A DNA stretch of 64,000 bases, taken from Candidatus Woesearchaeota archaeon. GTDB taxonomy: Archaea; Nanobdellota; Nanobdellia; Woesearchaeales; UBA11576. Below, in pieces: positions 4,862 through 60,091 of the stretch (the first letter of the stretch is position 1; each line of letters starts with the position of its first letter). The DNA lies in NCBI GenBank assembly GCA_018675335.1, contig JABGYH010000007.1:468986-532985 (forward strand), given 5' to 3'. The position numbers and the translations under genes are program-made. Below the pieces are notes generated by a model, which saw only the letters and a list, made by a program, of their open reading frames with translations, did not search any database and was not told the DNA's origin.

Positions 4862-4910
4862 AAAAATAAATGCAATTTGATAAATAAACCTGATTTGATA
4901 GTGAAAAAAT

Positions 4911-5483
4911 ATGAAGTTAAATTTTCAAACAAAAATCTTGAAGAACAAGAACGCATTAATTACATTTAACATACTTGCAATGATTCCTAGAATAATTTTT
5001 TTAATTCTTGCGATGATTGCAATAGTAATACTTGTAAGATTATTTGTCGTAGGTCAATTAGATATAGATCCTGTAATTGCAGATGTATTTGAACATTCAT
5101 TATTGTATTCTCCAGGAGGGATTTCATTTCATGATCCATTAACTGGAAGAATATATCCTGGAGTAATTGATGGAACTCAATTTGGAATAAACAAACTCGA
5201 TCTTAATAAATCACTTAGTTTAGGCAATAATCGATTAATTGCTGCAAGAATAAATTTAGAAACTTTTGCGCTTGAAGGAAAACCAATTGTTGTAGGATAT
5301 CCTATATTATTTTATAATGAAGATTGGTACTATAACTGGAAACCATTGGCTGATTTGAATAGTAATTTGAAAGGTCTTGGAAAAGCAGATTATCACGTTA
5401 GAACTTTACCTGTTGTAGTTAGAACAGTTCTTGGGCCATATCAAGGGAAATTAACAATAAGAATGATTATTCCTAGAGGCTAA
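4911..5483 (+). CDS. Hypothetical membrane-anchored protein (Lys-rich N-region plus one TM helix)
   Basis: 190-codon ORF starting 50 nt after the upstream stop, on the same strand. N-terminus is KILKNKNALITFNILAMIPRIIFLILAMIAIVILV. No catalytic motif recognised. Confidence 0.6.
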   Translation: MKLNFQTKILKNKNALITFNILAMIPRIIFLILAMIAIVILVRLFVVGQLDIDPVIADVFEHSLLYSPGGISFHDPLTGRIYPGVIDGTQFGINKLDLNKSLSLGNNRLIAARINLETFALEGKPIVVGYPILFYNEDWYYNWKPLADLNSNLKGLGKADYHVRTLPVVVRTVLGPYQGKLTIRMIIPRG

Positions 5484-19273: not shown

Positions 19274-22200
19274 ACTCAATTAATTTGAAACAAATTAGTG
19301 AAAGCCAAAAATTGGCAATGGTTTTAATAGTTACATTACTTATTGGTATTGGTGGAATTCTTAGTATAAATTTAAATTCAACAAATGTGGGAGTTGCGTC
19401 TGAAAATAACAATAATTTGTTTTCAGATTCAATTAATAGTTTCTTTTCTAGTAAAATGGGATTAACTGGATATTCCGTAAAAGACTCAGGAATTTTAGAT
19501 GTTGGGGTTGATGATAGCAGCGAGAATGAAAATTTGTTAGAGGTTCAAGGAGAATGGACTGGTTGTCAATCAGGGCCTATATTAACTCCTGGAATTTTTA
19601 CATTAACTCAAGATGATACTACTACTGAAACTTGTTTCCTTATAAGTACTGATGATTTGTGGATAGATTGTCAAGGGCACACGTTTACTAATGATCTGGG
19701 AGATTCAGGTGTTTATGTAAGTAATAGCAGGGATAATATTTCAGTTTTTAACTGTACTTTTATTAATTTTAGTTCTGGTGTAGATATTCATGGAGCGAGT
19801 ATTGGCTCAAATATTTCTTATGTAAACATTTATAATTCAGTATATGGAATTAAATTAGGATCAACTTCGGGAGGAGTTACAAATAGTTATTTTATTAATA
19901 ATCAAATCATAAATACAACTCAAGAAGCAATTAAATTTGATTCATTTGAAACAAATACTGGAAATTATTTTATTAATAATTATTTACAAAATTTTTCAAA
20001 AGGCTTTTTAATTGTTTCTGAGGATTCTGCAATAAATTATTTTTATAATAATCAATTAATTAATGGAACTATATTTGGATTTCAATTTGGTCAAAATACT
20101 ACTTCCATATTGATAAATAATACAATATCAAATGTTTTACAACGAAGTTTAGAACTTAATAGTGATGCTGAAGTAGAATCAATTGATACTACCCTAATAA
20201 ATGCAGGGTTATATGCAATAGATGATACAACAGATCCTGGCAATTATAGTTCACTGATTTATAATAATTCATTTGGTTTAATTAATTGGACAAAAGAAGA
20301 TCTTACAATTGGCGCGTTTGATTTAGAAGTTGGTTCAACAATATTTTTAGAAGAGAATAATATTGGTTTGGCAGACTTACCGGGGCTATCATCTCTTGAT
20401 TCTTTTGCACAAATAGAAATTAAGGGAGTTGATTTTACTGGGGATCCACAACTGGTTAAATTAGGAACTAATTGTAGCAGTCCAAATTGTAATGTAACGT
20501 CTTCTCTATCTGGACAATATGTCAAAGCAGATGTTAATGGTTTTAGTAATTACTCAATATATCAAGAAGAAACAACTCAAGAATATTTTACTTTTCAGAT
20601 TAATACCAGTCATATTGCTGGAACTAATTTTTCATTTCAGGCCGACGATGCGAATTTAACAGTTTGGTGGAATGAAACAAACTACACAAATTACGTTGAT
20701 TATGATGGACTAATGTGGCATAATTATTCTACTGAGGGAATTTACAATATTTCAGTAAATGGAACTGCATCAAGAATATCATTTTATGAAGGAACTGAAG
20801 ATGCACTAATAGACATACTAACAAATGTATCAAATGGGGTTAGTGGAATTACTAGTGCTTATAGAATGTTTATGGATGCAGATAATTTTGGAATAACTCC
20901 ATTAACTGAACCTAATTTCTTTGATGAGCTTTCTGAAAATATAACTACGTTGCAAAGCATATTTTCTTCATCGAGTTTTAATCAAGATGTTAGTAATTGG
21001 AATGTTTCTAATGTAATTACTATGTCTGAATCGTTTTCAAATTCGCCTTTTAACCAAAATATCGATAATTGGGATGTATCTAATGTTAAAGATATGAGTT
21101 TAATGTTTAATTATGCTCAAGATTTTAATCAAAATCTTAGCAACTGGAATGTTTCAAATGTTTTAGATATGCGCAACATGTTTTCAGGAGCATTTGATTT
21201 TAATGGAAATATAACTGATTGGGATGTTTCTAATGTAATTAATATGAATTCAATGTTTAATAATGCATTAAATTTTAATCAAAACATAAGTTCGTGGAAT
21301 GTTTCTAATGTTACTAACATGGGATATATGTTTAGAAGTACTTATGATTTTAATCAAGATATTGGTTCTTGGGACGTCTCGAATGTTGAGCAAATGGATT
21401 TTATGTTTAATATTGTTTCTGATTTTAATCAGGATATTAGTGCTTGGAATGTTTCTAAAGTTACTAATATGAACTCTATGTTTAGACAATCAGAAAGTTT
21501 TAATCAAAACTTAAGTTCTTGGGATGTTTCAAATGTTCAAAATATGCGTAATATGTTTTATAATTCTGTTTTTGATCAGGATATAAGTTCTTGGAATGTT
21601 TCTAATGCGGTTGATATGAGTTATATGTTTTATGATTCTATTTTTGATCAGAATATTAGTTCTTGGGATGTGTCGAATGTAACTGATATGACACACATGT
21701 TTCAAAATTCAGATTTTAATCAAAATATTAGTAGTTGGAATGTATCTAATTTGATTGATATGGGTTATATGTTTTGGAATTCTCAGTTTAATCAAAGTAT
21801 TGGTGAGTGGGATGTATCAAGTGTAACTAATATGAATAGTACATTTATTTATTCTCAGTTTGATCAGGATATAAGTTCTTGGAATGTTTCTAATGTGGTT
21901 GATATGAGTTACATGTTTTATGACTCTTTCTTTGATCAGGATATTGGTGCTTGGAATGTTTCTAGTGTGACAGATATGAGCGGCATGTTTGAAAGTTATC
22001 AATTATCTCGAGAAAATTATGATAGTTTGTTAAATGGTTGGGCTGAATTAACATTGACTGATTCAGTAATTTTTGGTGCAGGAAATTCACAATATTGTTT
22101 AGGTGAGACTGCTAGAAATTCAATATTAACAAATGAATCAGAATATAATTGGACAATTACTGATGGTGGAAAAAATTGTAGTGGTATAAGTTTTGATCCA

Positions 22201-25200
22201 ACCAATAAGTTTACTTTTCAAATTAATACCAGTCATATTGCTGGAACTAATTTTTCATTTCAGGCCGACGATGCGAATTTAACAGTTTGGTGGAATGAAA
22301 CAAACTACACAAATTACACAGATTATACTGGACTCATGTGGCACAATTATTCTGCAGATGGAATTTATAATATTTCAGTAAATGGAACTGCCTCAAGAAT
22401 ATCCTTCTTTGAAGGCGCCGAAGATGCACTAATTGATATTTTAACTAATATATCTTTAGGAGTTAGTGGAATTACAAATGCTGAAAATATGTTTCGTGAT
22501 ACAGTCAATTTTGGAATAACTCAATTAACCGAACCTAATTTTTTTGATGAAATTTCTGAAAATATAACTACTATGCAATATATGTTTTCGGGTTCTAAGT
22601 TTAATCAAGATATTAGTTCTTGGGATGTTTCAAATGTAACTAATATGTATGTCCTGTTTGGAAATTCTCCATTTAATCAAGATATCAGTAGTTGGAATGT
22701 TTCTAATGTTGGCACTATGGGCTATATGTTTTCAAATACTATTTTTAATCAAGATATTAGTTCTTGGGATGTTTCAAATGTGGTAGTTATGGCTAATATG
22801 TTTGCTAATTCTTTTTTTAATCAAGATATTAGTTCTTGGGATGTTTCAAATGTAACTAATATGTATGCTATGTTTGGAAATTCTCCATTCAATCAAGATA
22901 TTGGTAGTTGGAATGTTTCAAATGTTATTAATTTGCAGTACATGTTTCAAGATTCGCAATTATCTAGAGAAAATTATGATAGTTTGTTAAATGGCTGGGC
23001 TGAATTAACATTAACTGATTCCGTGAATTTTGAAGCAGGAAATTCTCAATATTGTTTAGGTGAGGAATCAAGAAATGATACGTTGATTGATACTTATAAT
23101 TGGGTTATTACAGATGGTGGAAAAAATTGTAGTGGGATCATAAATAATTTACCAATTATTAACGATTTGATATTAAATTCAACAAATAATTTAATTAATA
23201 ACACGAATCAGAATTTAACCTCATATTGGACTGTTAGTGATGATGACGAAGATAGTGTAAAAAATATTACTGATTGGAAAGTTAATGGAACTTCTTTATT
23301 TATTGCAAATATTCCTTTTGAAGGGGGAAGTAATTTTTCATTTACTAAAGATTATTCTCCAATTGAAAATGAAATAATTGTTAACGGTGCAGATTGGATT
23401 AGTACTGGTGGTTTTGATGGGCGTGGCGCGTATGATTTTACCCAAAATACTGATGTTGTTTCAATTATGAGTTCTGCAAATAATGATTTAACTGGAAAAT
23501 ATGGAATAACTTTTTCTGTTTGGATATATCCTACTTCTTCGAGTGCGTGGTCTAGAATTTTTTATCGTAAGTGGAGTACAGTTGATGAAGATCCTTGGTC
23601 TGCGTACTCAATGTATTTTGATGATGCTGGAAAAATAGGATTTGCATTAACGCTGGATGACAATAATGCTTATGGAACTACAACAAGTTCTGCAATTCCT
23701 TTAAATCAGTGGTTAAATATTGTTGGACGCTACAATGGAACAAATATTTCTATATATGTAAATGGGGTTTTAAACAATACTGCACAAGGAAATGGATCAT
23801 TAATTCCTTTAGGGGATCCAATAATTAATGGCAATATAGATATTGGTAAAAATACGTTTAAAACAACTCAAACTTTTTCAGGATTAATTGATGAATTTAT
23901 GATATTTAATAGATCTTTAAGTGATGAACAGATTTTTGTAATTTATGAAAACAAATCTAATATTTTAGTTTCAGAAGAAACTACAACTGGAGAAAACTGG
24001 TCATTTTGTGTTACTCCAAATGATGGTATTGGTGATGGAAATCAAGTTTGTTCAAATGAAGTAGAAATATTAGGGGGTGATTGTGATTATTATATTAATA
24101 GTTGTGGTAACTTAAATAATCCCGGAAATTATTGTTTGACTGAGAACTTAACGAGTTCTGAAACTTGTTTAACATTAAATAATAATTCAATTACTCTTGA
24201 TTGTCAAGGATATAATGTTACAGGAGATAATTCTGTTGATAATTCTCAAGGAATAACTTCTCCAGAAGGTAATTTTGAAAATGGAACTATACAAAATTGT
24301 GAAATTTCAGGATTTGAACAAGGTATTTATTTAAATAATTTTAATAATGTTTTAATTTTTAACAATACTGTTTTTAATAATTATTTTGGTCAATCAGGTG
24401 CGGGTATTTACCTATCAGGAGGGGTTAATGTTAGTCTTAGTGATAATAATATATATGATAATTATGAATATGGTATTTCTTTAAACCAAGTTAGCAATTC
24501 TTCAATTTTTAATAATTTAATTTATAATATTAGTGATGGTGCCTCTTGGGTTTCAAAAGGAATATATTCTGATGCTTCATTTAATTTAACTTTTTTTAAT
24601 AATTTTATTAACTCAAGTTCTGATGGATTTTATGGTTCTGGAAATTATATTAATTTTTCAAACAATCAAATTTGGAATATGAATACGACTGGTGCGAAGT
24701 TAAATAATATTAATAACTCTATTTTGGAATATAATATTATGACTAATATGCGACCTGCTTCAACTTCAATTAGGATATCAAATCCAATAAATTTAAGTTT
24801 TAGATTTAATAATTTAACTAACGTATCTAGACTTCTCTCAATTGGTGAGACTTTAGAAAATCAAATTTTACTTGAATCAAATAATTTTAATTCTTATTAT
24901 CTTTATACTTATAATATTAATTTAGGAAGTGTTTCGATTTTAGCAGATAATAATTATTGGAATGGATCTACTTGCGAACAAATAATGTCCATGGTTGATC
25001 ACGATGATGATTCAAAATTTTTCTTAACTAATGTGTTAAATGATAGTTGGCCTCAAGGAATACCTGAAGATTGTGGGGAGTTATATTGTGGTCAATTCGT
25101 AAATGAGTCAAAAAATTTAACTGAAAATAGACAATGTGAACATGAATGGATAAAAATTGTTGAAGATAATATAACTATTGATGGTTTGAATAATTTAATT

Positions 25201-37200: not shown

Positions 37201-39996
37201 AGCGATGATTATTTGCATGCAGAATTTGATTTAACTCAAGAAGAGTCTTCTAGTGTTGAGGTTATTACATTAAATTATGTTGAACCTTCTGTTGATTTTG
37301 AGGCTTTTGTAAATGTTAGTTTGCATCCAGAGTTAGGTTCTTTTGAAGAAGATGCTGTTTTATCAAGTGGGTTATTTGTATTTAATGAATTTAATGATGA
37401 CTTGTTTTTTGGTTGTGATTTTATTTATAATTCGTCTGGTTACTATTTTATGGGTGAATCTGATATTGATGAAACTAATTTGCCAATATCTGGTGTTGCT
37501 GATTCAGGAATTCTTAGTTTATCTTTTGATTCAGTTAACAATCAATCAACCTGTAGTTATGATGGTAATGAAATTACATTCAATGCAACTGTTGGAGAAG
37601 ATTATGTTTTAGCACTGGGGATGGGTCTTGATCGAGATGAAAATTGGGATAATGTTACAGGTGCAGGAAATGTTTCGATGGATGATTTAACATTTACAAC
37701 CATATCTCCTGGTTTTTTAGAATCATTCTTTGATGATTTTAGTCCTAATTTGAATTTATCATTTTATAATTTAGATGTGAATGAATTAGGAGTTAATTTT
37801 TCATCTATTGATTATTTACATTCCGAATTTGATTTAACTCAAGAAACAGGTTCTATTGTCGATATTATTACTTTTGATTATTTGGAAATTGGTGAAGATT
37901 TTGATGCATCAGTATATGTTAATTTGTTTCCCGAAATAGGATCATTTACTGAGGATGCTTATTTGTTTAATGCAATTTCTGTTTTTAATGTTGAAGATGA
38001 TGATTTATATTTTGGGTGTGAAGTTTCATATAATTCTTCTGGATATTATTTTAAAGGTAGGTCTGATATTGATGAAACTAATTTGCCGATAGGAGAAGTT
38101 TCTAGTTCAGGTTTAATTAATATGTCTTTTGACTCTGTTAATAACCAATCAACTTGTAGTTATGATGGTAATGAAATAATATTTAATGCAACTGTTGGAA
38201 GCGAATATATTTTAGCGTTAAATATGGGTCTTGATCGAGATTATGAATATACTAATGTCACTGGAATTGGAAATGTTTCGATGGATGATTTAACATTTAA
38301 TATTGAATCTCCTGGAGAATTAGAATCATTTTTTGATAATTTTTCAGAATTTAATGAAAGTTTTTATGATGTTTCAGATGAGGATAATGCAAGTTATGAA
38401 ACAACGCCTGCATTATTTATGAACGAAAGTATTGAAGATGATTCGGGAATATATGTTGATTTTTTAACTGAGGATTATGTACCTCTAAATAATTTTTCTC
38501 TTTCAATGGAGGTTAATTTAATTCCTCAAATTGGAAGTTTTGAAAATGGAACTTATTTATTGTCGTATGTTGGAGTGGTAAGCTCTGGCGAAGATGATGA
38601 TTGGTATGGGTGTGAATTAAGATATAATAGTTCGGGATATTTCTTTTCAGCAGTTTCAGAACCAGATTTTATTGGCACGAGCGCGCAAATTGTGGGTGAA
38701 GGAAAAATTACTTTTACTTATAATAGTTCAGATAATTCATCCGTTTGTTTATTTGATAATACTTCAATTCAATTTAGTGCTCCATTAGTTCCATTAGAAT
38801 TCAAAGTAGCAATGTCGATGGGAATTGATAATGATAATGAACAAACTTTTGGGAACGGCGAGGGTAATGTAACTATTGATAATCTAAATTATACTATAAT
38901 TCATACATTTGAAAATGATGTTCCAGTTATTCCTCAAACACCAGGTGGTGGAAGTGGTGGAGGTGGAAGTGATAATCCTGTGACTCATTATGTAATTCCA
39001 ACATATGACGGAGTGGATATTTCAGTAAATAGTAAAGATAAAATAACTTTGCTGTACGAAGGACAAGAGTATGATTATAAAATAAGTCAATTAACAACTT
39101 CATTATTGTTGCTTAGTAGACTTTATTCGCCTTACTTATACAATTTTGTTCCTGGTAGTGAAGTTACTATAGGTGTAAGTAATATTTTTGAAGATCAAGT
39201 TATTATAACTTACACTCAAATAGGAAAATTAGATGTGATGAATTTTAAATTGTATGCATCCCCTAAAAAACCAAATTATAATTTATTACCCCCTAAGAAA
39301 AAAGTATTTACTCCTATAATTGATGATCCTATAATCCCTGAGGAGGATACATTTATACCTGAAAAAATACTTGAAGAAATCCAAGATATGATTGAAGTTC
39401 CAGTACTAGAAGAAATGCCAAAAGAACCAATATGGGATAAAATAAAAAGTTTATTGTGGTTTGTATTATATGTATGTTTAATTTTAGGCGTGGTTGCTGG
39501 AGCAAGTTATGCAGTTCCAAAAACATATTCTTATTTGAGTTATGTGTGGCCATTAAGAAGATTTAACCCTTCAGATTTATTAAAAGGAAGACCACAACGA
39601 AAATTAGATCAAGTAAGTAATAAATTTGAATCAGTTAAACATGAAGATTCACAAATTGAAAAAATAGAACAGAATAAAGTGGAAACTTCCAAAGTAAAAA
39701 ATAATAAATTAGAACAAGTAATTGAACCGGTAAAAATAATTCCTGAAGTTAAACCAATTGAAAACCCAACCCCAATTGAAGAGTCAAATTCAGTTGAGTC
39801 TGATAATCAAATTATGGGACATGTTGATTTAAATGAAATTGATAGTAAAATAAATTTAGCATTTAAAAAATCCGAAATTGATAGTTTAGATGAACATGAT
39901 ACTCGAATTGATACAGTTCATGATGCGTTAGAAGAAATTAATCAAGCATTGGACAAAGTCAAAAAAGAAATGAAAGATTCGAATAAGAAAGAATAA
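19270..39996 (+). CDS. Giant (6,908 aa) cell-surface protein: N-terminal TM/signal, right-handed beta-helix modules, BspA/DUF285-type repeats, LamG domain, CARDB-like modules, tandem C-terminal repeats, C-terminal TM anchor
   Basis: Uninterrupted 20,727-nt ORF. N-terminal helix LAMVLIVTLLIGIGGIL. 14 + 5 repeats of F[ND]Q[DN]IssW[ND]VSNVtnMxxMF. LamG-like segment FSVWIYPTSS...LNIVGRYNGTNISIYVNG...IDEFMIFNRSLS at about 23385-23950. Seven modules start with a Cys-framed cap of the type ETCLxxxxxxITLDCQG. TM segment LLWFVLYVCLILGVVAGASYAV lies at about 39451-39516 and is followed by a ~160-aa tail. Confidence 0.85.
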   Translation: MNSINLKQISESQKLAMVLIVTLLIGIGGILSINLNSTNVGVASENNNNLFSDSINSFFSSKMGLTGYSVKDSGILDVGVDDSSENENLLEVQGEWTGCQSGPILTPGIFTLTQDDTTTETCFLISTDDLWIDCQGHTFTNDLGDSGVYVSNSRDNISVFNCTFINFSSGVDIHGASIGSNISYVNIYNSVYGIKLGSTSGGVTNSYFINNQIINTTQEAIKFDSFETNTGNYFINNYLQNFSKGFLIVSEDSAINYFYNNQLINGTIFGFQFGQNTTSILINNTISNVLQRSLELNSDAEVESIDTTLINAGLYAIDDTTDPGNYSSLIYNNSFGLINWTKEDLTIGAFDLEVGSTIFLEENNIGLADLPGLSSLDSFAQIEIKGVDFTGDPQLVKLGTNCSSPNCNVTSSLSGQYVKADVNGFSNYSIYQEETTQEYFTFQINTSHIAGTNFSFQADDANLTVWWNETNYTNYVDYDGLMWHNYSTEGIYNISVNGTASRISFYEGTEDALIDILTNVSNGVSGITSAYRMFMDADNFGITPLTEPNFFDELSENITTLQSIFSSSSFNQDVSNWNVSNVITMSESFSNSPFNQNIDNWDVSNVKDMSLMFNYAQDFNQNLSNWNVSNVLDMRNMFSGAFDFNGNITDWDVSNVINMNSMFNNALNFNQNISSWNVSNVTNMGYMFRSTYDFNQDIGSWDVSNVEQMDFMFNIVSDFNQDISAWNVSKVTNMNSMFRQSESFNQNLSSWDVSNVQNMRNMFYNSVFDQDISSWNVSNAVDMSYMFYDSIFDQNISSWDVSNVTDMTHMFQNSDFNQNISSWNVSNLIDMGYMFWNSQFNQSIGEWDVSSVTNMNSTFIYSQFDQDISSWNVSNVVDMSYMFYDSFFDQDIGAWNVSSVTDMSGMFESYQLSRENYDSLLNGWAELTLTDSVIFGAGNSQYCLGETARNSILTNESEYNWTITDGGKNCSGISFDPTNKFTFQINTSHIAGTNFSFQADDANLTVWWNETNYTNYTDYTGLMWHNYSADGIYNISVNGTASRISFFEGAEDALIDILTNISLGVSGITNAENMFRDTVNFGITQLTEPNFFDEISENITTMQYMFSGSKFNQDISSWDVSNVTNMYVLFGNSPFNQDISSWNVSNVGTMGYMFSNTIFNQDISSWDVSNVVVMANMFANSFFNQDISSWDVSNVTNMYAMFGNSPFNQDIGSWNVSNVINLQYMFQDSQLSRENYDSLLNGWAELTLTDSVNFEAGNSQYCLGEESRNDTLIDTYNWVITDGGKNCSGIINNLPIINDLILNSTNNLINNTNQNLTSYWTVSDDDEDSVKNITDWKVNGTSLFIANIPFEGGSNFSFTKDYSPIENEIIVNGADWISTGGFDGRGAYDFTQNTDVVSIMSSANNDLTGKYGITFSVWIYPTSSSAWSRIFYRKWSTVDEDPWSAYSMYFDDAGKIGFALTLDDNNAYGTTTSSAIPLNQWLNIVGRYNGTNISIYVNGVLNNTAQGNGSLIPLGDPIINGNIDIGKNTFKTTQTFSGLIDEFMIFNRSLSDEQIFVIYENKSNILVSEETTTGENWSFCVTPNDGIGDGNQVCSNEVEILGGDCDYYINSCGNLNNPGNYCLTENLTSSETCLTLNNNSITLDCQGYNVTGDNSVDNSQGITSPEGNFENGTIQNCEISGFEQGIYLNNFNNVLIFNNTVFNNYFGQSGAGIYLSGGVNVSLSDNNIYDNYEYGISLNQVSNSSIFNNLIYNISDGASWVSKGIYSDASFNLTFFNNFINSSSDGFYGSGNYINFSNNQIWNMNTTGAKLNNINNSILEYNIMTNMRPASTSIRISNPINLSFRFNNLTNVSRLLSIGETLENQILLESNNFNSYYLYTYNINLGSVSILADNNYWNGSTCEQIMSMVDHDDDSKFFLTNVLNDSWPQGIPEDCGELYCGQFVNESKNLTENRQCEHEWIKIVEDNITIDGLNNLINYSRGTRTSNGITALNVVNITVQNCSLLRPDGYQQDQPAIYFENVSQSEIFNNSFNILGYEHYSYPVYLYESQLIDVYDNYMNTECYYCYGVFTKNSDQITIHNNTVNTSMLDAHGFKSEYSTNIDYFLNNITANAYLSEGFRIEDSENVSIINNFFNATSYSSNPVNAQSTINLTIESNEFLTPGSGGLSISGTQYSHFDHNIANNNTIDGFSIWVNKSVQNHQLNNELLNDFGQVICLNCENVSYYNTTFGIDGLGLFGGTNISLINSSFSTSTSGSILDYTLANFNFLNSSINGAGPTNYGLVINSINATIQNSLINTAGSGVDSIQVNSEGFVINNSEIFSGPLALRLNNADFSFVDNINTTTVSGQGIVLEWSDFVIIKNSNINSTSYSLRNYYSDNNLFENLDLYSESNCGLFLYAGDAENLTLKDSIIKHNSANSVCSQDNNIMARLLNTSFNHSKNFSFSNSDGAIFVDWYVQFNVTNITEEQLDLAEIQILNVTGDLIESVNTNSSGLTEMLTIREFNQTSSNKTMMTPHDVTIDLAGFEQENFMLNLSETESTLQNITLIPTGYYQEVSECGVLDTEDMYYKLVADLESNETCITIAAEGITLDCQEHSINYSINESFGYGINNSGYTEVNINNCTVKTSSGWGAGPAIYFNGSQGGIHNSNITMPEDNSAIYVDYPTVSVNISNNYISAVGASGEGITFAGFNSYIENNFIEVDVVDAIRIVQYGFANKIFNNTIYSELATQIGINIVDSYNQGNPNGLNNNISSNKLTNSQIWIQNSNNNFLEDNKINSTEYNSIGLINSFNLSIDSSNLVEGFSVYYNESIENEILLENEIVNETYGQIICNNCSNITYNNVTFGSDGITFFNSANISINNSRGISGVGSLVWAYNSKDINITFSVFNSSQEEEDGMSLFSLNLYQSNNSNIYGNTFIADKTDTFSLYYSSVNDVFVSNNLFDLNSYRSRGISCGSCTGELSFNYNNFSIGGNYSQAFYYLPSHAEISHNKFNSSNVIEDLSYVLDSNIFDSTNLTIYNNSFYGYLRLMNLRGYSYNVSNNYFDMDDSDQSLLTLSTSNSFFNNNIMGCPSNYCVQLVAGTNNNFTNNTLIGDDSIVIDDGSGIFIDGELNTTGIYFSGSAAGNITIAQSVYFNITNSTLDGLDNSQVLVNDLFGAGVINAMTNSTGLTGYYVLNEFLENKTERINYSPHQVNVSLAGYNSNNSLVNISELEDFEIQKTLEIFVGGSLAIQQNEPAEFLLIDNGAIFNYSVNISCQDGPCGNITLILDPQDSEEKGNVTLDSSGDKTKQIVSINSVNLEDNNSFLYDVQLSGCYLTEGQSDAYDGFFDLNVNYSEYGGLRFEDNSLEGWANCESQIISDLNITRKIYVSDQENWIRYLEILQNPTEQEICVNVSISGDLGSDSSTVCVNTSDGDNDFTIADSWFITDDEGDLGGGSENDPTLAFVFQEDNFGVERIDSAYCADGDDMPYWQWNDTCVFPGETKILMHYGVQQTDRSAALVEVLDIQENFLSEIHTARMSDAEQEQIINWGFSKGVIPNGSGNPFYTVSENPRTSITDNCLTNMQADESCEINWTVHTNSSGGDYTFFVIAESDISEVLGVLSSNVTILVDGANPELVSKQPQNDAIFGDGPISQDFNCTFSDDVNLSNISLYITDETDQNFVLNSSQNKIGLENTSDWNLDLIDGNYTWACLAKDQFGKQAWSQNNTVEVGYSGFLIDECINITLPGNYILSNSINSISGNCININVSNVNLDCLENTISSSNMNNGINVEDADNISITGCSFENLSRGINIVGNYGIYLNNLNINRNQVTSNNVSYGIYLYYINNSIIQNNLFESLPYAIYGDYSDNLLVQNNNFDSGDSVLRIYYVNNLSFNQNNLTSISSDVINLQGVLLGSGDKLNISQNNFIDTSSTLYFSGAFNVSAQQNYWNSTSCSEIISKIGYQGGTKFEFEPFLDDVWPAGEEQDCGEEIYCGMIIDESINLTQDLSCDSNGLNFGGSNLVIDCKGYKIKSENIYSYYTAIRDLYNSNNTIQNCSVEQFRSGVGGDGTNLTIKYNNFTNHTSLLSYYGSVNLSYNNFFNISETFLLVDGEIIAENNYWNSTDCNEISNKISRNHLGSNIVFYPVLDAPWPIGQPRDCQSPYCNEFLNHSIILTEDLNCLVNGLIIDNENITVDCAGHTIRYSGDDYYSDYTTGLNIERTNATIKNCNVSNFYDGIRGYFTDRINLSDIEIYNSSQFGITFNNVPYSNLNNLSLINNERAIEFQDQPDTNVTNSLIYNTQLMDYVNVDLLRLHGTNLFFENITIENISAEYCSSFSAINVRDMSHSEFRNVVIKNMSNPGGCDSYYEANGIYVSSYGYTYDNITFVNLDIQNVSDKSIYTPYAAEINYVFDTENGTISWQNKSAVDINATSFVLGEQVFIEENLLGLADNELLSNLNSTAQLIFKGLGHPAEPEILKNGVLCGEEEGCNVTYFNSQEDMLIVEVDSFSNYSTQLNLIDYEFSVEVGENVTGSVGENVSYVVNVTNEGLISDNYTIYLDSNETDYANINQTEFDQVGFGEQISFNLTTRDDSPGDYLAGVYVRSEGNNSNDLLIQFNTTFETQAGIINVTKLNPLGSEETVQYNTIFNYSILVGCELGDCGNISSELFRYNNTEIEIVPYWSGNPYRSINPTPKNYTNYSCLGNMTQGDTCQLDWLVFSEELPGLNSMVYANLSSDVLGFSNTMSDEVNITMDYISGNLNQTRIVPISNQLFKSPDDYINYTILVGCNVISGCNDLTVSLYWYNNTDHELVPYNSGTPFRDIISNPKTKFTDECLDDMLFEETCQLEWGIIVDSNVPNSEYDIYSNITSSSEGILPIVTEELNITIGETTEIEINLIEPQNTITNFTQNEFNNYSVNISCVGSNDCGIITAGVYFQNISNDTFEQVFSFYDVSDLTSIARYDYSGESIFSFSEYNKSLNSISEGGDYVYLASTEDDIYQYDLVTGELTNNWDAVMDGDIGWATEVVSDNQSNFYYTTLASEVVAKRNSSGDSQWYYNFDESASQSIEGIALSNDDRLFLYSEENLTILNNLDSETPSFYANLTYEGETIKAVVAEHNSNRMFFVVTKDDTTGNLSFYQYDDGDGVTWNGDELTGSLSFLPADYNISSESDALLGAEMTAWVYPVVLFKNKDDSYAYNLISFEWNFENVFINSQIRPGNESESYSNYNLRTEKSGDDPVTTVSATSTAGDGKILIHDYNGNYISEYNYSQLPINLVSFNLNGLNIAESANETIPFNFGAYFYVNTSNPTQTNFLLSGESEIINWYVNATGPLFSSYILQSESYLSETPFVNSSSQILNITIVSAGESNFSGLVELTNPIVCSNGYTSGNGDFNISNETVICENGLLEVMGDINIFESMQGDSEFIEVNNFTLDEIGYVDFVEENYIGSVNIPVDISFVDQNYSPDWDSGIGEFRITFNEANKIGVYLDNVPENVIYMIDTDGNSSLGVNFGGPMNGTEVIFGNIGGNYVAGCWNETAPMEQPFTFLESGDYCDNSFHSNIGSNTTVIYDTFGTAAEYVFDVTSGWHEEELLVWVVQFNASAGDNGEMGYTLFASTNLSGFGEVESGSEGNLIIRNVTLKPEGSINSFGNLSINYSIVEFQMTENGSSNFSIGSGEYDQEYSAIANISLSEIRSNDSEYYWGFRVYGVDHVTLFDNDFSDSGLVGDQWGWTHDNRFGQCYNLSIVSNIFSNSAEQRSVNLADTIYDLEFVSNEIKNYASLSISDILGENTSVVISSNILGSLFIENLNDTLFENNTIIGSMILANEAEQNSSNNTFLNNNFQGGIIDNNYLFENVLVYNNSYGEFRVESNNISIEPGPYSLGLGMSELFIENNNITIETIFESWNATLKFYDLPWSGGVNLTRNNILQLECNYYECEYNNITGIMQVNQTELPIDVTYSTVGNMGVFEEHTFLESFFDDFSPNLNLSFYELDLDELGVIFSSDDYLHAEFDLTQEESSSVEVITLNYVEPSVDFEAFVNVSLHPELGSFEEDAVLSSGLFVFNEFNDDLFFGCDFIYNSSGYYFMGESDIDETNLPISGVADSGILSLSFDSVNNQSTCSYDGNEITFNATVGEDYVLALGMGLDRDENWDNVTGAGNVSMDDLTFTTISPGFLESFFDDFSPNLNLSFYNLDVNELGVNFSSIDYLHSEFDLTQETGSIVDIITFDYLEIGEDFDASVYVNLFPEIGSFTEDAYLFNAISVFNVEDDDLYFGCEVSYNSSGYYFKGRSDIDETNLPIGEVSSSGLINMSFDSVNNQSTCSYDGNEIIFNATVGSEYILALNMGLDRDYEYTNVTGIGNVSMDDLTFNIESPGELESFFDNFSEFNESFYDVSDEDNASYETTPALFMNESIEDDSGIYVDFLTEDYVPLNNFSLSMEVNLIPQIGSFENGTYLLSYVGVVSSGEDDDWYGCELRYNSSGYFFSAVSEPDFIGTSAQIVGEGKITFTYNSSDNSSVCLFDNTSIQFSAPLVPLEFKVAMSMGIDNDNEQTFGNGEGNVTIDNLNYTIIHTFENDVPVIPQTPGGGSGGGGSDNPVTHYVIPTYDGVDISVNSKDKITLLYEGQEYDYKISQLTTSLLLLSRLYSPYLYNFVPGSEVTIGVSNIFEDQVIITYTQIGKLDVMNFKLYASPKKPNYNLLPPKKKVFTPIIDDPIIPEEDTFIPEKILEEIQDMIEVPVLEEMPKEPIWDKIKSLLWFVLYVCLILGVVAGASYAVPKTYSYLSYVWPLRRFNPSDLLKGRPQRKLDQVSNKFESVKHEDSQIEKIEQNKVETSKVKNNKLEQVIEPVKIIPEVKPIENPTPIEESNSVESDNQIMGHVDLNEIDSKINLAFKKSEIDSLDEHDTRIDTVHDALEEINQALDKVKKEMKDSNKKE
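20960..21990 (+). repeat. Array of 14 in-frame 24-25-aa BspA/DUF285-type leucine-rich repeats (coding)
   Basis: I counted W[ND]VS[NKS]..M...[MT]F units in the translated giant ORF. The period is 72-75 nt. Confidence 0.85.
22585..22950 (+). repeat. Second array of 5 BspA/DUF285-type repeats (coding), part of a duplicated cassette
   Basis: Same repeat consensus as the first array. Two ~110-nt stretches inside it (about 22602-22712 and 22824-22934) are nearly identical. Confidence 0.8.
37111..38919 (+). repeat. Three tandem 603-nt (201-aa) coding repeats near the C-terminus of the giant protein
   Basis: Units start at 37111, 37714 and 38317 with FLESFFDDFSPNLNLSFY / FLESFFDDFSPNLNLSFY / ELESFFDNFSEFNESFY. 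Copies 1 and 2 are clearly more similar to each other than to copy 3. Confidence 0.85.
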
Positions 39997-40022
39997 ACTA
40001 GTTTAATTCTATGTTTGTAAGT

Positions 40023-40060
40023 TCACTGGACACTGGACAGTTGCGTGTGAGCTATTTAAA
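40023..40060 (+). promoter_or_regulatory. Conserved GC-rich element (copy 1) fused to a TATA-like box
   Basis: tcactggacactggacagttgcgtgtgagctat + ttaaa. The first 33 nt are identical to 56866-56898. Contains the tandem heptamer ACTGGAC-ACTGGAC and ends in tatttaaa. Confidence 0.6.
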
Positions 40061-40212
40061 TGATCAACTTAACCTATTCTTTGTTGTAAACAAGCACTCC
40101 CGATCAAAGTCCTCTTTACCCTTGTTTGCAACGACCTCCATTTCCTGAGGCCAAAGTTGTCTATAATTTAAGGGAAATTGAAACAAAAAGCGAAAGCAAG
40201 GGGGAAAAGAAA

Positions 40213-40470
40213 ATGGAAAAAACAATGCCAGTTAAAGTTTTCAAAGTAGGTGCTATTTCTGCTTCAATTTGGGTTAATAAAATTCAAAAAGATGGAAAAG
40301 AATTTGCATATAGTACTATAAGTTTAGAACGCAATTACAAGGATCGAGAAGGTCAGTGGAAAAAAACTAATTCAATGAGACTTAATGATATTCCCAAAGC
40401 TACACTTATTTTGAATAAATCGTATGAATATTTAGCAATGGAACATCCAGAATTAGCGCAAATGGCGTAA
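40213..40470 (+). CDS. Small (85 aa) putative ssDNA-binding protein, tentatively PC4/YdbC-like
   Basis: ATG 40213 is preceded by AAGGGGG. The TTG 40126 extension lies inside a predicted leader hairpin. ISASIWVNK...ISLERNYKDREGQWKKTNSMRLNDIPKATLIL resembles the PC4-like beta-sheet plus helix pattern. The function call is weak. Confidence 0.4.
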   Translation: MEKTMPVKVFKVGAISASIWVNKIQKDGKEFAYSTISLERNYKDREGQWKKTNSMRLNDIPKATLILNKSYEYLAMEHPELAQMA

Positions 40471-40533: not shown

Positions 40534-41583
40534 ATGGCGAGTAAATCTGAAAAAAATAAAACTGAAGAAATTATGCCTGAAATTGGCGTTGAAGATATTC
40601 TTCCAACATCATTAAAAATGGAATCCGAATCAAATAACGAAGTAAAAGAAAAAGAATTTACATTATATGACTTGCCAGGAGTGGGAGCTGCAACTGCTGA
40701 AAAACTTAAAGAATCAGGATATGATACTGTGATGTCTATTGCTATAGCATCTCCTGGAAAACTAACTGATGATGTTGGTGTAAGTGAAGGAGTTGCTCGA
40801 AAAATGATAAATGCTGCTCGTGATTCTTTAAGCATGGGATTTGTTTCTGGAGATGAGATTTTAAAGAAAAGAGCAAATGTAGTAAAGATTCCTACTAGTA
40901 GTGCGATGTTTGATGAATTAATGGGAGGCGGTTTTGAAACATCTGCAATTACTGAAGTTTTTTCAGAATTTGGTGGTGGAAAAACTCAAATTGGTCACAT
41001 ATTATCTGTGAATATTATTAAACAACTTCCTGATGCGTATGTTGTGTATGTAGATACAGAAAATACATTTCGTCCGGAAAGAATTATACAATTAGCAAAG
41101 GGCGCAGGAGTTGATCCTTCTGAAGTTTTAAAAAGAATAAAAGTTGCGAAAGCGTATAACTCTGATCATCAAATGTTACTTGTAGAAAAAGTACAAGACT
41201 TAATTAATAATGATAATCTTAATGTAAAATTAGTTGTTGTGGATTCGTTAACTTCTCATTTTAGAGCAGAATTTATTGGAAGAGGAACTCTTGCAGAAAG
41301 ACAGCAGAAATTGAATAAACACATGCATACTCTTGCAAGACTTGCAGATTCAAATAATTTATGTGTTTATGTAACCAATCAAGTTATGTCTAAACCTGAT
41401 CAATTTTTTGGAGATCCAACTACTGCAATTGGAGGGCATATTGTAGGTCACGCATCTACGTTTAGGATTTATTTAAGAAAAGGTCGTAAAGGTTCGAGAG
41501 TTGCAAAACTTGTAGATTCGCCAAATTTGCCTGAAGGGGAAGCTAATTTTATGGTTGTCGAAGAAGGTTTAAAAGACCTTTAA
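40534..41583 (+). CDS. radA: DNA repair and recombination protein RadA
   Basis: GAGGTGA SD at 40520-40526. N-terminal HhH (LPGVGAATAEKLKESGY), Walker A SEFGGGKTQ and Walker B LVVVDSLTSHFRAE. Length is typical of archaeal RadA. Confidence 0.92.
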   Translation: MASKSEKNKTEEIMPEIGVEDILPTSLKMESESNNEVKEKEFTLYDLPGVGAATAEKLKESGYDTVMSIAIASPGKLTDDVGVSEGVARKMINAARDSLSMGFVSGDEILKKRANVVKIPTSSAMFDELMGGGFETSAITEVFSEFGGGKTQIGHILSVNIIKQLPDAYVVYVDTENTFRPERIIQLAKGAGVDPSEVLKRIKVAKAYNSDHQMLLVEKVQDLINNDNLNVKLVVVDSLTSHFRAEFIGRGTLAERQQKLNKHMHTLARLADSNNLCVYVTNQVMSKPDQFFGDPTTAIGGHIVGHASTFRIYLRKGRKGSRVAKLVDSPNLPEGEANFMVVEEGLKDL

Positions 41584-41724: not shown

Positions 41725-42414
41725 ATGTATGGGAATAATTACGGTGGAAATAATGATAGGCGTGGAGGATTTCGCGCGCCTGTGGCTCCTGTGAGAGAAG
41801 GAGAAGAAGTTGATGTAAGAATTGAAGCAGTTGGAGAAAAAGGCGACGGCGTTGCAAAGAAAAAAGGATTTGTTCTTTTTATTCCTAACGCTCGTGAAGG
41901 TGATGAAGTTAGAGTTAAAATCACTAGAGTATTGAAAAAAGTAGGATTTGCTGAAGTTATAGGCCCGGCACAAGGACCGATTGATGAGGATCAACCACCT
42001 CAGAGAAGACCTAGAGAAGATAATCGACCTGTTGCTCAACCAGAACCAATGCGTGCATCAGTACCTTCACCTGAAGATACCGAAGATTTCGGAGATGAAC
42101 CTGAAGAATCTGCACCTGAAGAAGCTGCACCTGAAGAAGCTGCACCTGAAGAATCTGCACCTGAAGAAGCTGCACCTGAAGAAGCTGCACCTGAAGAAAT
42201 GCCTGCAGAAGTTCCAGTTGCAGAACCAGTTGAAGAAGTAAATTCTGAACCTGCTTTAGAAACTCCAGTTGAAGAAGCACCTGTAACAGAACCTGAAGCT
42301 GCACCTGAAGAAGTGCCTGCAGAAGAACCAGTTGCTGAAACTCCAGTTGATGATATGGAAATTCCACCTCCTCCATTAGATGATGAATCTGATGAAGAGA
42401 AAAAAGAAGAATAA
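41725..42414 (+). CDS. TRAM-domain protein with a long acidic Pro/Glu/Ala-rich C-terminal tail
   Basis: EVDVRIEAVGEKGDGVAKKKGFVLFIPNAREGDEVRVKITRVLKKVGFAEV is a TRAM OB fold. The tail is built of APEE[AS] repeats. ATG 41725 follows AGGTG. Confidence 0.75.
   Translation: MYGNNYGGNNDRRGGFRAPVAPVREGEEVDVRIEAVGEKGDGVAKKKGFVLFIPNAREGDEVRVKITRVLKKVGFAEVIGPAQGPIDEDQPPQRRPREDNRPVAQPEPMRASVPSPEDTEDFGDEPEESAPEEAAPEEAAPEESAPEEAAPEEAAPEEMPAEVPVAEPVEEVNSEPALETPVEEAPVTEPEAAPEEVPAEEPVAETPVDDMEIPPPPLDDESDEEKKEE
42109..42198 (+). repeat. Perfect 45-nt x 2 (15-nt x 6) coding tandem repeat
   Basis: tctgcacctgaagaagctgcacctgaagaagctgcacctgaagaa occurs twice back to back and encodes SAPEEAAPEEAAPEE x 2. Confidence 0.9.
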
Positions 42415-56865: not shown

Positions 56866-56903
56866 TCACTGGACACTGGACAGTTGCGTGTGAGCTATAT
56901 AAA
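56866..56903 (+). promoter_or_regulatory. Conserved GC-rich element (copy 2) fused to a TATA-like box, about 22 nt upstream of the hef ATG
   Basis: tcactggacactggacagttgcgtgtgagctat + ataaa. There is one mismatch to copy 1 over 38 nt. The spacing from tatataaa (56896-56903) to ATG 56925 fits a leaderless transcript. Confidence 0.6.
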
Positions 56904-56924: not shown

Positions 56925-59450
56925 ATGATGGGATCAATTGATGCGATGGAACAAGTTATAACTCAAGGTGGTAAGTTTTATAATCTCACAGATTTTATTT
57001 ATGGCAAACCCAGTACAACCGTTATTAATGGTAGAACTAATACAAGAACTATGAAAACTCTTGATGAAATGGAAAAAGAATTTGAGAAAGAGCTAGAACA
57101 AAAAGCTAAATTAGAAAAATTAAAACAATCAACTAAAACAAATTCATTAAAAAAATCTGAAAAATTTGAGAAGATAAGTTCAAATTCAGTACCTAATGTT
57201 AAAGAAACGTCTGAATTATTAAATACTCAATTAAAACCTAGATTGTATCAAGAAACAATACTTGGAACTTGCTCATTCAATAATACTTTAGTTGTTCTTC
57301 CAACTGGAATGGGAAAAACAATGATTGCAATGTTGCTTGCAGCAAATAGACTCAAAACATTTCCTAATTCTAAAATTTTAGTGCTTGCACCAACTAGACC
57401 TCTTGTTGAACAACATTTACATACATTTCGTAAGCACACTAACTTGACTGAAGATGAAACTGTTTTATTCACTGGACATGTTAAACCTGAAAAACGAGCA
57501 GAACAATGGAAAACTGCAAAAGCAATATTTAGTACACCACAAGGACTTGAAAATGATGTTTTAAGTGGCAGAATTAAACTTACTGAGGTGTCATTAATTG
57601 TTTTTGATGAAGCACATCGTGCGACAGGAGATTATAGTTATGTTTTCTTGGCAAAAAAATATGATTCTCAAGCGACCTATTCTCGAGTTTTAGCATTAAC
57701 TGCAAGTCCTGGAAGCGATGCAGAAAAAATAATTGAAGTTTGTCAAAATTTAAAAATAGAAGCAGTCGAAGTAAGAACTGATGAAGATCCTGATGTGAAA
57801 CCATATATTCAAGACGTAGAACTCAAATGGATTTCAGTACAATTTCCAGAACAATTTAAAAAATTACACTCTTATTTGCAAGAATCATATAAATCAAAAA
57901 TTGCACAAGCAAAAAACTATGGTTATATTAAAAATGGTAGTTCGCCATCAAAAACAGAACTTCTTAGAGTGCAAGGATTTTTACATAAAGAACTTTCTAA
58001 AGGCTTTAAAGATGAAGGATTATTCAAATCAATATCTTTAATTGCGGAAGCTATGAAAGTTCAGCATGCAATTGAACTTATTGAAACTCAAGGAGTAACT
58101 CCGCTTGTTGAATATTTGGATAAATTAGAAACTGAAGCAGTTCAGGGAAAATCAAAAGCTGCAAAAAATCTTTCAATTGATATAAATTTTAAATCTGCAA
58201 AAATTATTGCAACAAGATTAAACGAAGAAGGAGTAGAACATCCAAAAGTTCAAACATTAGTTGATTTAATTACAAAAGAAACAATTAATCCAAATCAAAA
58301 AATAATCTTATTCAATCAGTACAGAGATAGTGCATTAAAACTTAAAACTGAATTAGATTTAGCAGGGATTTCAAATCAAATATTTTTTGGGCAAGCCAAG
58401 AAAAAAGGACGGGGCCATAGTCAAAAAGAGCAAAAACAAATTTTAAATGATTTTAGATTTGGAAAATTTCAAATATTAATTTCAACTAGTGTTGGTGAAG
58501 AAGGTCTTGATATTCCGAAAGTTGATTCTGTTATTTTTTATGAACCAATACCCTCAGCAATACGAACTATTCAGAGGCGAGGAAGAACTGGTCGAAGTGA
58601 AAAAGGTAAAGTATTTGTTTTAATGACTAAGGGTACGCGGGATGAAGGATATAGGTGGAGTGCACATCATAAAGAAAAAAGAATGTATCGTGTTTTAGAA
58701 GAAATAAGGAAAGGATTTGAAAAAGCAGGACTTACCAAACAAACACAAAAATATGTTAAACCTTTAGAAAAATCCGAATCAAAATTAACTGATTTTATTT
58801 CAGAAAAACCTTTGCTAATTTATGCAGATCATCGAGAAAAATCAAATACAATAGTTAAAGAAATGTCATCTCAAGGAATTCACATTGAACTTAAACAATT
58901 AACACTTGGGGATTATCAACTTTCTAAACGAGTTATTGTCGAACTCAAAAAAGTTTCTGATTTTGTAGACTCAATAATTGATGGTAGATTACTTGATCAA
59001 GTAAAACGACTCAAAAGTGAAGTTGAAAGACCAGTTATCATAATTGAAGGTGAAGAAAATATTTATTCACAACGAAAAATTCATCCGAATGCAATCAGGG
59101 GAATGATTGCAACAATTACAATTAGTTTTGGGATCCCAATAATTCAAACAAGAAATGTGTCAGAAACTGCAGCATTATTATTGATCATGGCTAAACGTGA
59201 ACAAGATGAGTTTAGTAGTGAATATTCTATGCATGGATCTCGTAAACCAATTACTGTGAAAGAACAAGTGGAATATATTGTTAGTTCGCTACCAGGAATT
59301 GGTCCTGGACTTGCAAAACCATTACTTGAAAAGTTTAAGACAATTAAAAATATTGTTAATGCAACTGAAGATGAATTAAAAGAAGTTGCAAAAATAGGAG
59401 ATAAAAAAGCTAAAGAAATACAAAAAGTTTTAACTCAAGAATGGATTTGA
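56925..59450 (+). CDS. hef: Hef-type helicase-nuclease (SF2 helicase + ERCC4/XPF nuclease + HhH2)
   Basis: Helicase motifs LPTGMGKT, VFDEAHRA, LTASPG and QRRGRTGR. Nuclease signatures are YADHREK and GDY...VELKKVSDFVDSIIDGR. C-terminal HhH2 is LPGIGPGLAKPLLEKF...IGDKKAKEI. Confidence 0.88.
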   Translation: MMGSIDAMEQVITQGGKFYNLTDFIYGKPSTTVINGRTNTRTMKTLDEMEKEFEKELEQKAKLEKLKQSTKTNSLKKSEKFEKISSNSVPNVKETSELLNTQLKPRLYQETILGTCSFNNTLVVLPTGMGKTMIAMLLAANRLKTFPNSKILVLAPTRPLVEQHLHTFRKHTNLTEDETVLFTGHVKPEKRAEQWKTAKAIFSTPQGLENDVLSGRIKLTEVSLIVFDEAHRATGDYSYVFLAKKYDSQATYSRVLALTASPGSDAEKIIEVCQNLKIEAVEVRTDEDPDVKPYIQDVELKWISVQFPEQFKKLHSYLQESYKSKIAQAKNYGYIKNGSSPSKTELLRVQGFLHKELSKGFKDEGLFKSISLIAEAMKVQHAIELIETQGVTPLVEYLDKLETEAVQGKSKAAKNLSIDINFKSAKIIATRLNEEGVEHPKVQTLVDLITKETINPNQKIILFNQYRDSALKLKTELDLAGISNQIFFGQAKKKGRGHSQKEQKQILNDFRFGKFQILISTSVGEEGLDIPKVDSVIFYEPIPSAIRTIQRRGRTGRSEKGKVFVLMTKGTRDEGYRWSAHHKEKRMYRVLEEIRKGFEKAGLTKQTQKYVKPLEKSESKLTDFISEKPLLIYADHREKSNTIVKEMSSQGIHIELKQLTLGDYQLSKRVIVELKKVSDFVDSIIDGRLLDQVKRLKSEVERPVIIIEGEENIYSQRKIHPNAIRGMIATITISFGIPIIQTRNVSETAALLLIMAKREQDEFSSEYSMHGSRKPITVKEQVEYIVSSLPGIGPGLAKPLLEKFKTIKNIVNATEDELKEVAKIGDKKAKEIQKVLTQEWI

Positions 59451-59815: not shown

Positions 59816-60091
59816 TTAATCTTCTTCAGGTTCTTCAATATCTTCGCCAAAATCATTTGCAGTATCTGCAATAATTAAAGTTTCACATTTTTGAATATCT
59901 TCAATAGTATTAATATTGTTTTGCATAAATTCTTCAAACGAAGTAGAAGTTTCACAATCAATCTTTACAATTAAATCATATCTACCATAAGTCTCATTAA
60001 GTATTGCTACTTCTTCAAAATTGTTCATTCTAGTTGCAACAAGCTTTTTCTTGCCAAATTTGGTATTTAATAATAGATATGCTGAATACAT
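59816..60091 (-). CDS. Stand-alone Lrp/AsnC-type ligand-binding (RAM) domain protein
   Basis: YSAYLLLNT...VAILNETYGRYDLIVKIDCET...FEEFMQN has the beta-alpha-beta-beta-alpha-beta pattern of AsnC_trans_reg. No HTH is present. Confidence 0.55.
   Translation of the reverse strand: MYSAYLLLNTKFGKKKLVATRMNNFEEVAILNETYGRYDLIVKIDCETSTSFEEFMQNNINTIEDIQKCETLIIADTANDFGEDIEEPEED

Follow-up and report, generated by a model that had tools for sequence, protein, structure and literature searches.

A conserved GC-rich promoter motif as a putative control site of recombination and repair genes in Woesearchaeota

Why should two recombination and repair loci of a woesearchaeon, separated by a run of housekeeping genes, carry the same short GC-rich sequence immediately in front of their promoters? 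Within the 64-kb stretch of DNA analysed here (the window), the 33-mer TCACTGGACACTGGACAGTTGCGTGTGAGCTAT occurs exactly at 40023-40055 (+) and again at 56866-56898 (+), whereas 100 dinucleotide-preserving shuffles yielded no match, which bears out the original prediction that the identity of the two copies and their + strand orientation are real. A repeat finder extended the copies to 38 nt with 97% identity and a single mismatch, and this longer repeat takes in the TATA boxes TATTTAAA and TATATAAA; the 33-mer thus abuts a TATA-like box at both places, as had been claimed. No third copy was found in the 64 kb at up to three mismatches, neither half of the 33-mer had a further copy in the window at the same tolerance, and a profile search of the window returned no site beyond the two, in line with the earlier statement that no others exist. 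The element has a GC content of 44-46% in a window of approximately 30% GC, and the contrast that had been noted with its AT-rich background also holds at the level of promoters: the sequence 5' of the TATA box at the other promoters of the window is A-rich, and the GC-rich block is therefore gene-specific.

The tandem heptamer ACTGGAC-ACTGGAC described in the original prediction is real and is better phrased as CACTGGA-CACTGGACA. In copy 1, a distal box CACTGGA (40024..40030, +) starts 29 nt 5' of the TATA start and a proximal box CACTGGACA (40031..40039, +) starts 22 nt 5' of it; these are followed by the 13-nt GC-rich spacer GTTGCGTGTGAGC (40040..40052, +), whose GTGAG end falls at the BRE position, and by the TATA box TATTTAAA (40053..40060, +) of the transcription unit that includes radA. 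Copy 2 has the same order of parts, with the distal box CACTGGA at 56867..56873 (+), the proximal box CACTGGACA at 56874..56882 (+), the spacer GTTGCGTGTGAGC at 56883..56895 (+), identical to that of copy 1, and the TATA box TATATAAA of hef at 56896..56903 (+). Window-wide, ACTGGAC occurs seven times versus 2.5 expected. Single extra CTGGACA heptamers are located near the hef promoter at 56561, 56831 and 57472 (+), two of them within the upstream MBL gene and one within hef; these may be auxiliary sites or chance occurrences.

Both repair proteins named in the original prediction were confirmed, with RadA (40534..41583, +) being a Rad51/RadA recombinase and Hef (56925..59450, +) combining DEAD and Helicase_C helicase domains with an ERCC4 nuclease domain and HhH2. 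The accompanying claim that the element lies directly upstream of its genes did not stand for copy 1, whose TATA box lies 160 nt 5' of the ATG (40213) of the small gene that opens the radA unit, and transcription of that unit is predicted to start near 40083, judging from the usual distance between TATA box and start site. The TATA box of copy 2 starts 29 nt 5' of the hef ATG, so the hef mRNA would be leaderless or nearly so. On their 5' side, copy 1 begins 26 nt past the stop (39996) of a giant ORF, and copy 2 begins 18 nt past the stop (56847) of an MBL-fold gene. The giant ORF (6908 aa; 19270-39996, +) encodes DUF285, Laminin_G_3 and Beta_helix domains, has long arrays of 72-75-nt tandem repeats at 20977-23015, and presumably specifies a giant surface protein.

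The small gene (40213..40470, +), with radA 63 nt 3' of it, encodes an 85-aa protein of no known family, with no sequence match in Pfam, NCBIfam or PDB. Its AlphaFold model (pLDDT 85) has four strands and one helix, and PC4 was absent from the best 50 Foldseek matches to this model; the label "PC4-like" given to it earlier was therefore left without confirmation. Only two relatives of the protein were found in the databases (in L038 and L039), each with its gene followed by radA. A linear block preceding the small-gene ATG is common to the three genomes (GAAACAA.A.GCGAA.AGCAAGG.GGAAAAGAAA-ATG; window ~40172-40212, L039 ~972-1012, L038 ~1250-1288). In so long a 5' UTR, this block may act as a translation signal or as a second signal for regulation. 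A structured 5' UTR was considered at this place and dropped, as the block has a fold z-score of -0.5 and no consensus structure. Elsewhere in the neighbourhood, a 15-nt tandem repeat, GAAGCTGCACCTGAA, at 42060-42350 encodes an E/A/P-rich stretch inside a TRAM-domain ORF (41725-42414), the product of which has 229 aa in the window and in L005 versus 209 aa in strain L004, so that the repeat number appears to be strain-variable. A stand-alone AsnC-type RAM-domain gene (91-92 aa, without an HTH) is convergent with hef in the window (59816-60091, -) and in L040 (12499-12777, -), and no such gene was found convergent with hef in L043, L045 or L051.

The same motif recurs at promoters in related genomes. 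Altogether, 14 distinct promoters carry it in the same orientation and register (13 clear, one degenerate), comprising all six hef promoters examined (the window included, one of the six being the degenerate case), all three promoters of the small-gene/radA unit (again with the window), the promoter of a winged-helix gene in four of four genomes examined, and one further promoter (L001) that precedes a tRNA-like gene and then a gene for a Cas4/Dna2-like nuclease, this association with genes having been established in part by fetching chosen genes (hef and the winged-helix members). The hef homologues bear the names Woesearchaeota or Nanoarchaeota, which places the window in a DPANN archaeon, and exact matches to the window's proteins come from contigs of 0.46-0.56 Mb in Saanich Inlet and other marine metagenomes. 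The hef modules of the relatives read GCACTGGACACTGGACTTGCCCGCGTGAGATATATAAA in L040 (68% amino acid identity), CCACTGGACACAGGACATGCGCTCGTGAGGTATTTAAA in L043/L044 (60%), CACTATCCACTGGACACGTACGGATGAGCTATATAAA in L045 (61%) and CACTCTCCACTGGACAGACGCGCGTCAGGCTTTTAAAA in L051 (55%). The degenerate module precedes the hef of L052 (57% identity) and has the form CACGGGACA-N15-TATATAAA, elsewhere given as CCACGGGACA-N15-TATATAAAG, which indicates that the module can degenerate. Promoters of the small-gene/radA unit carry CACTGGTCACACCGGACAGATGGCGAGAAACTATAAAAGG in L038 and CCACTGGACAACCTCGCGCAGCGCTTTTGAATGG in L039. Loci with the module in front of the winged-helix gene are L016/L023/L037, L046, L048-50 and L053, and L016/L037 and L023, from a related AT-rich archaeon, have the element variant TCACTGGACACTGGACAGTTGgtCGTGTGAGaTATTTAAA. 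The winged-helix gene of L046 and the hef of L051 are located on one 868-kb contig, and therefore represent a second organism with at least two motif members.

Genomes carrying the motif span 29-50% GC and their flanking intergenic DNA is unalignable; when the sequences upstream of hef in the window and in L040 were aligned, the motif and TATA box accounted for most of the identity. The marks of a regulon, namely presence of the motif at two or more units of one genome (in two organisms), conservation at orthologous genes, and fixed orientation and distance, were all found. This listing of the downstream genes in related genomes supports the original prediction of an operator or activator site, at or beside the BRE, of a recombination and repair regulon. 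Some of the related loci have features of their own around the motif. A 38-codon ORF, MIVFFDAERKESCDQAQYVADSNDFMNQFRWQPKGESFF, occupies L016 595-711, starting approximately 36 nt past the TATA box in the 200-nt gap before the winged-helix gene. Directly 5' of the hef promoter in L043, a perfect 54-nt tandem duplication (2.2 copies; 9799-9915) has a unit that starts with CCACTGGAC, giving three boxes in a row. Extra single boxes occur farther upstream in L048 (at 9838) and in L053 (at 9876), and those of L043, two in number, are within the 54-nt duplication.

Read from 12 promoters anchored on the TATA box, the module consists of CACTGGA-CACnGGACA, a 13-nt GC-rich spacer usually ending in RTGAG, and the TATA box. 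The distal box, CACTGGA, is at -29 from the TATA start, with C.CT nearly invariant among the 12 promoters and its CACT kept even when the remainder is lost. Conservation peaks in the proximal box, CACnGGACA, at -22, whose CAC..GAC is invariant in 12/12; this box starts 22 nt (range 22-24) 5' of the TATA start at all sites. The spacer (13 nt, rarely 14-15) contains one nearly invariant C and ends in RTGAG at 8/12 sites, and the TATA consensus that follows is TATWTAAA. Every site is oriented toward the downstream gene and is on the strand of that gene. Relative to the predicted transcription start, the module would span roughly -52 to -31. The two boxes form a direct repeat with a 7-nt offset, not a palindrome, although the 16-bp site may also be read in a pseudo-palindromic form, CTGnnCAnTGnnCAG, as an alternative binding mode.

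Within the sequence searched, the motif is specific to these promoters. A sequence-only profile (R1), built from 12 promoters and run over 230 kb on both strands, found no full site beyond the training promoters and their strain duplicates, and a further 37 kb yielded just one significant match (E=4e-5), the L053 promoter, on which the profile had not been trained. Copies scattered away from promoters had been named at the outset as evidence that would speak against a regulatory role; in the 230 kb, all sites were at promoters. In these loci, no site was found at the promoters of PCNA (pcn), primase, PolB, MGMT, a DEAD helicase and a ribosomal-protein operon, among them the two (PCNA and primase) that the original prediction had already described as lacking it. 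Across 185,579 species-representative genomes (GTDB), the core 20-mer had three matches, which is approximately the chance expectation, and two bacterial ones (L002, L003), inside GC-rich bacterial DNA, were set aside as chance. Metagenome contigs gave 26 matches to an 18-mer, which fall into four groups: a strain copy of the window, the AT-rich archaeon (L016/L037, L023), tandem arrays of GGACACTGGACAGTT, and chance. Units of GGACACTGGACAGTT(G) or ACTGGAC, which have the 18-mer in common with the element, are repeated in tandem over long stretches in unrelated organisms (L013, L017, L020, L030, L032), and these arrays appear microsatellite-like, without a promoter link. Viral contigs contained neither the core 20-mer nor the degenerate module, and a full-text search of the literature returned nothing relevant on the motif string or on radA, hef or DPANN regulons. 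Based on its conservation, its geometry and its gene association, the element is very probably a cis-regulatory promoter motif of a recombination and repair gene set, and its likeliest role is to control a small gene circuit that has not been described previously.

One member of this set, L001 (CAYJXD010000012.1; positions of interest 3913-5010, 2864-3916, 7060-7154 and 6930-7000), is the third and sole archaeal match to the core 20-mer among the species representatives. It has an intergenic 22-nt match, CACTGGACACTGGACAGTTGCG, followed, after the same 7 nt, by the TATA-like TTAATAAA. The contig is labelled Methanosarcinales, and conservation across phyla was rejected as a reading of it, since its TyrRS is 59% identical to that of the window and it shares the same pair of TyrRS and M24 peptidase genes, making it a relative of the window that is probably mis-binned. 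The first feature 3' of the L001 promoter is not a repair gene. At the predicted start lies a tRNA-like sequence that scores below the Rfam threshold (17 bits, E=0.3); its variable arm is long and Leu-type, and 17 nt are inserted in its T loop. A gene for a Cas4/Dna2-like PD-(D/E)XK nuclease begins 28 nt past this sequence, with a Shine-Dalgarno-like GAGGT and no space for a promoter of its own, so the tRNA-like sequence and the nuclease gene would be co-transcribed. Several TTCCGGAA(A) repeats are located 5' of the L001 element.

Which protein might read the motif? The best candidate is the product of the winged-helix gene, because its own promoter carries the site in 4/4 genomes. The gene 3' of the element in L016 encodes a 162-aa protein, and the family (~155 aa) has 5762 database matches at ~60% identity among Woesearchaeota and Nanoarchaeota. 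The family has no significant Pfam match and no PDB sequence match, with a weak match to the Pfam wHTH family HVO_A0261_N in 20/30 members, and some members are labelled ArsR-family regulators by JGI. The AlphaFold model (pLDDT 85, pTM 0.82) has a helix-helix-helix-wing core plus two C-terminal helices, and its best Foldseek matches are Fur, OhrR/MarR, NsrR, PadR and RovA (probability up to 0.99, E ~0.1). The window itself gave no homologue of this protein, only a spurious 29-aa match.

A site at the gene's own promoter fits an autoregulated regulator and equally an ordinary member of the regulon, and hence the main alternative is that another protein is the factor and that the winged-helix protein is just one of its targets, for example a repair or chromatin protein. 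The protein is indeed unusually conserved for a regulator and could be such a protein instead, ~60% identity over 5762 matches being a level seen more often in core machinery; histone H1 and the cullin WHB, neither of which is a regulator, are also among its fold matches; and, as the target of a dimeric winged-helix protein, a 7-nt direct repeat would be unusual. Nonetheless, the regulators of comparable regulons, LexA among them, as a rule control their own genes, MarR/PadR/Fur-type regulators dominate the fold matches, and the loci examined show no consistent link between the sites and any other regulator gene. We therefore consider a different factor unlikely, if worth keeping in mind, and put the winged-helix protein forward as the putative factor for the motif, with the box sequence CACTGGACACTGGACA as its putative target, at slightly less than even confidence.

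A further alternative dispenses with a dedicated regulator and reads the element as an extended core promoter recognized by an alternative TFB or TBP, with RTGAG as a variant BRE and the boxes as its upstream extension. RTGAG falls exactly at the BRE position and differs there from the A-rich sequence of the other window promoters, and a precedent exists in the Sulfolobales, where the response to DNA damage involves TFB3, a damage-inducible paralogue of TFB. The gene tfb3 is listed among the DNA-damage-responsive genes of that order (PMC6061795). However, the best-conserved part of the module, CAC..GAC, is located 13-22 nt 5' of the TATA box, past the normal BRE contact, and the boxes are kept in L001, L038 and L039 despite the absence of RTGAG. 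Moreover, no TFB paralogue was found in association with the sites, the sole TFIIB gene seen being 10 kb off in L046. An alternative core promoter is thus quite improbable, and the element is probably, on sequence grounds, a gene-specific cis-regulatory promoter module with a putative transcription-factor site just 5' of the BRE and TATA box.

The two window copies agree even where the spacer differs from one genome to another, which points to gene conversion or a recent copying event in this lineage. This could be taken to mean that the copies are a recently copied "mobile promoter", a MITE-like repeat or an att pair with no regulatory meaning. However, the 64 kb contain just two copies, the 230 kb searched gave no site beyond the promoters, the element has no terminal inverted repeats, the motif is found at orthologous promoters of genomes with 55-68% protein identity, and viral contigs gave no matches. 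A MITE or dispersed repeat was rejected for the same reasons, the sites being confined to promoters and of low copy number. The 16.8 kb between the copies encode TyrRS, M24 and M29 peptidases, a proteasome-type AAA ATPase, PCNA and other housekeeping genes, the order of which is kept in relatives, and there is no tRNA gene in the window; therefore, the copies are not att sites of an integrated element, and the GC content is uniform as well. A mobile origin without regulatory meaning is accordingly very unlikely. No more credible is an element acting at the RNA level, whether as part of a small RNA or as a signal that terminates the upstream gene or directs its 3' processing: both window copies do lie 18-26 nt past a + strand stop codon and a CTCAC/GTGAG stem can be drawn, but in L016/L023, L001, L048 and L051 the gene 5' of the element runs in the opposite direction, fold z-scores of -1.2 to +1.7 are not significant, the stem is paired in 57% of cells versus 53% in shuffles with no covariation, there is no T-run, and Rfam was matched neither at gathering score in any part of the window nor, over 39900-40300, at E<=10, so that the 3'-end signal offered as an alternative in the original prediction is rejected.

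Under the preferred reading, a regulatory site serving a set of repair promoters, a sequence-specific DNA-binding protein would sit on the CACTGGA-CACnGGACA boxes and control the recruitment of TBP and TFB at a promoter that is without the usual A-rich BRE. The units co-regulated in this way in Woesearchaeota would be hef, the small-gene/radA operon, probably the Cas4/Dna2-like nuclease gene, and the ~155-aa winged-helix gene, the product of which may act on its own promoter in an SOS-like logic. As for the direction of control, the position of the boxes fits an upstream activating site, and a repressor that occludes the BRE and TATA box is equally possible. Responsiveness of the regulon to DNA damage is a tentative proposal, suggested only by the functions of RadA, Hef and the Cas4/Dna2-like nuclease. 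The full version, an autoregulated SOS-like regulon of Woesearchaeota in which the winged-helix protein switches hef, radA with the small gene, the nuclease gene and itself upon damage or replication stress, is conceivable and somewhat doubtful.

The closest parallel in logic is the bacterial SOS regulon, in which the LexA operator, or "SOS box", is located upstream of recA, lexA, the uvr genes and others. Similarly, one short motif here links a recombinase with nuclease and helicase repair genes and also, should the winged-helix protein prove to be the factor, with the regulator's own gene, and it too overlaps or abuts the core promoter. The setting differs in that the promoter is an archaeal one with a TATA box and BRE, and the site is a direct repeat of 7-nt offset 5' of the TATA box rather than a palindrome; no S24/LexA domain was found among the annotated neighbour genes examined. 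The Deinococcus RDRM, of the DdrO-IrrE system, is comparable in the manner of its discovery, as that repair regulon was first recognised by a promoter motif upstream of recA and other genes, and the set described here would likewise be a lineage-specific repair regulon recognised purely from a conserved promoter motif. However, the Deinococcus system is bacterial, with a palindromic 17-bp site and an XRE-family repressor that is cleaved by a metalloprotease.

Among archaea, upstream activating sites are represented by those of Ptr2 (Methanocaldococcus), GvpE (haloarchaea) and TFB-RF1 (Pyrococcus). These resemble the present module in being repeat-based, in lying immediately 5' of the BRE and TATA box, and in serving promoters with a weak or atypical BRE that needs help in recruiting TBP and TFB, whereas the motif is unrelated, the protein family differs or is unassigned, and activation is putative in our case. 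The Sulfolobales have a DNA-damage-responsive element, 5'-ANTTTC-3', which is bound by Orc1-2 (PMC6061795). That element is also a promoter-proximal motif of a DNA-damage gene set, situated a few tens of bp before the start codon, and the protein that binds it has a winged-helix domain (PMC6061795), as our candidate factor does. Nevertheless, ANTTTC is absent from the 38-nt element, the phylum is another one, and the genes are ups, ced and tfb3 there versus hef and radA here (PMC6061795); the protein there is an Orc1/Cdc6 AAA+ protein, whereas the candidate here is a winged-helix protein of 155 aa. In S. solfataricus, Sta1 binds and activates in vitro the promoter of the radA paralogue sso0777 (PMC2175319). 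Sta1 is likewise a small DNA-binding protein with a gene-specific site at the promoter of a recombinase-family gene, binding being putative in the present case, but the AT-rich site that it recognises (TTATT, CANGNA, TTATT) was described at a single promoter (PMC2175319), with no conservation over multiple genes and genomes comparable to that of the motif here. Sequence, lineage and candidate factor all differ from the SOS, Orc1-2, Sta1 and Ptr2/GvpE/TFB-RF1 systems.

DPANN archaea are mostly uncultivated and have tiny genomes with few regulators, and to our knowledge nothing is known of DNA-repair regulation in them. Even in archaea as a whole, the regulation of DNA repair has been detailed mechanistically essentially only in Sulfolobales, for Orc1-2 and TFB3 (PMC6061795). 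The motif described here provides a rare handle on the control of archaeal repair genes, and could serve as a practical marker for predicting members of a repair regulon in Woesearchaeota MAGs. A 16-nt putative operator of fixed geometry, together with a short list of targets and a candidate regulator, makes the question testable in vitro without culture. If the proposal is true, this would be the first defined archaeal DNA-damage regulon outside Sulfolobales, and the first regulon of any kind in DPANN.
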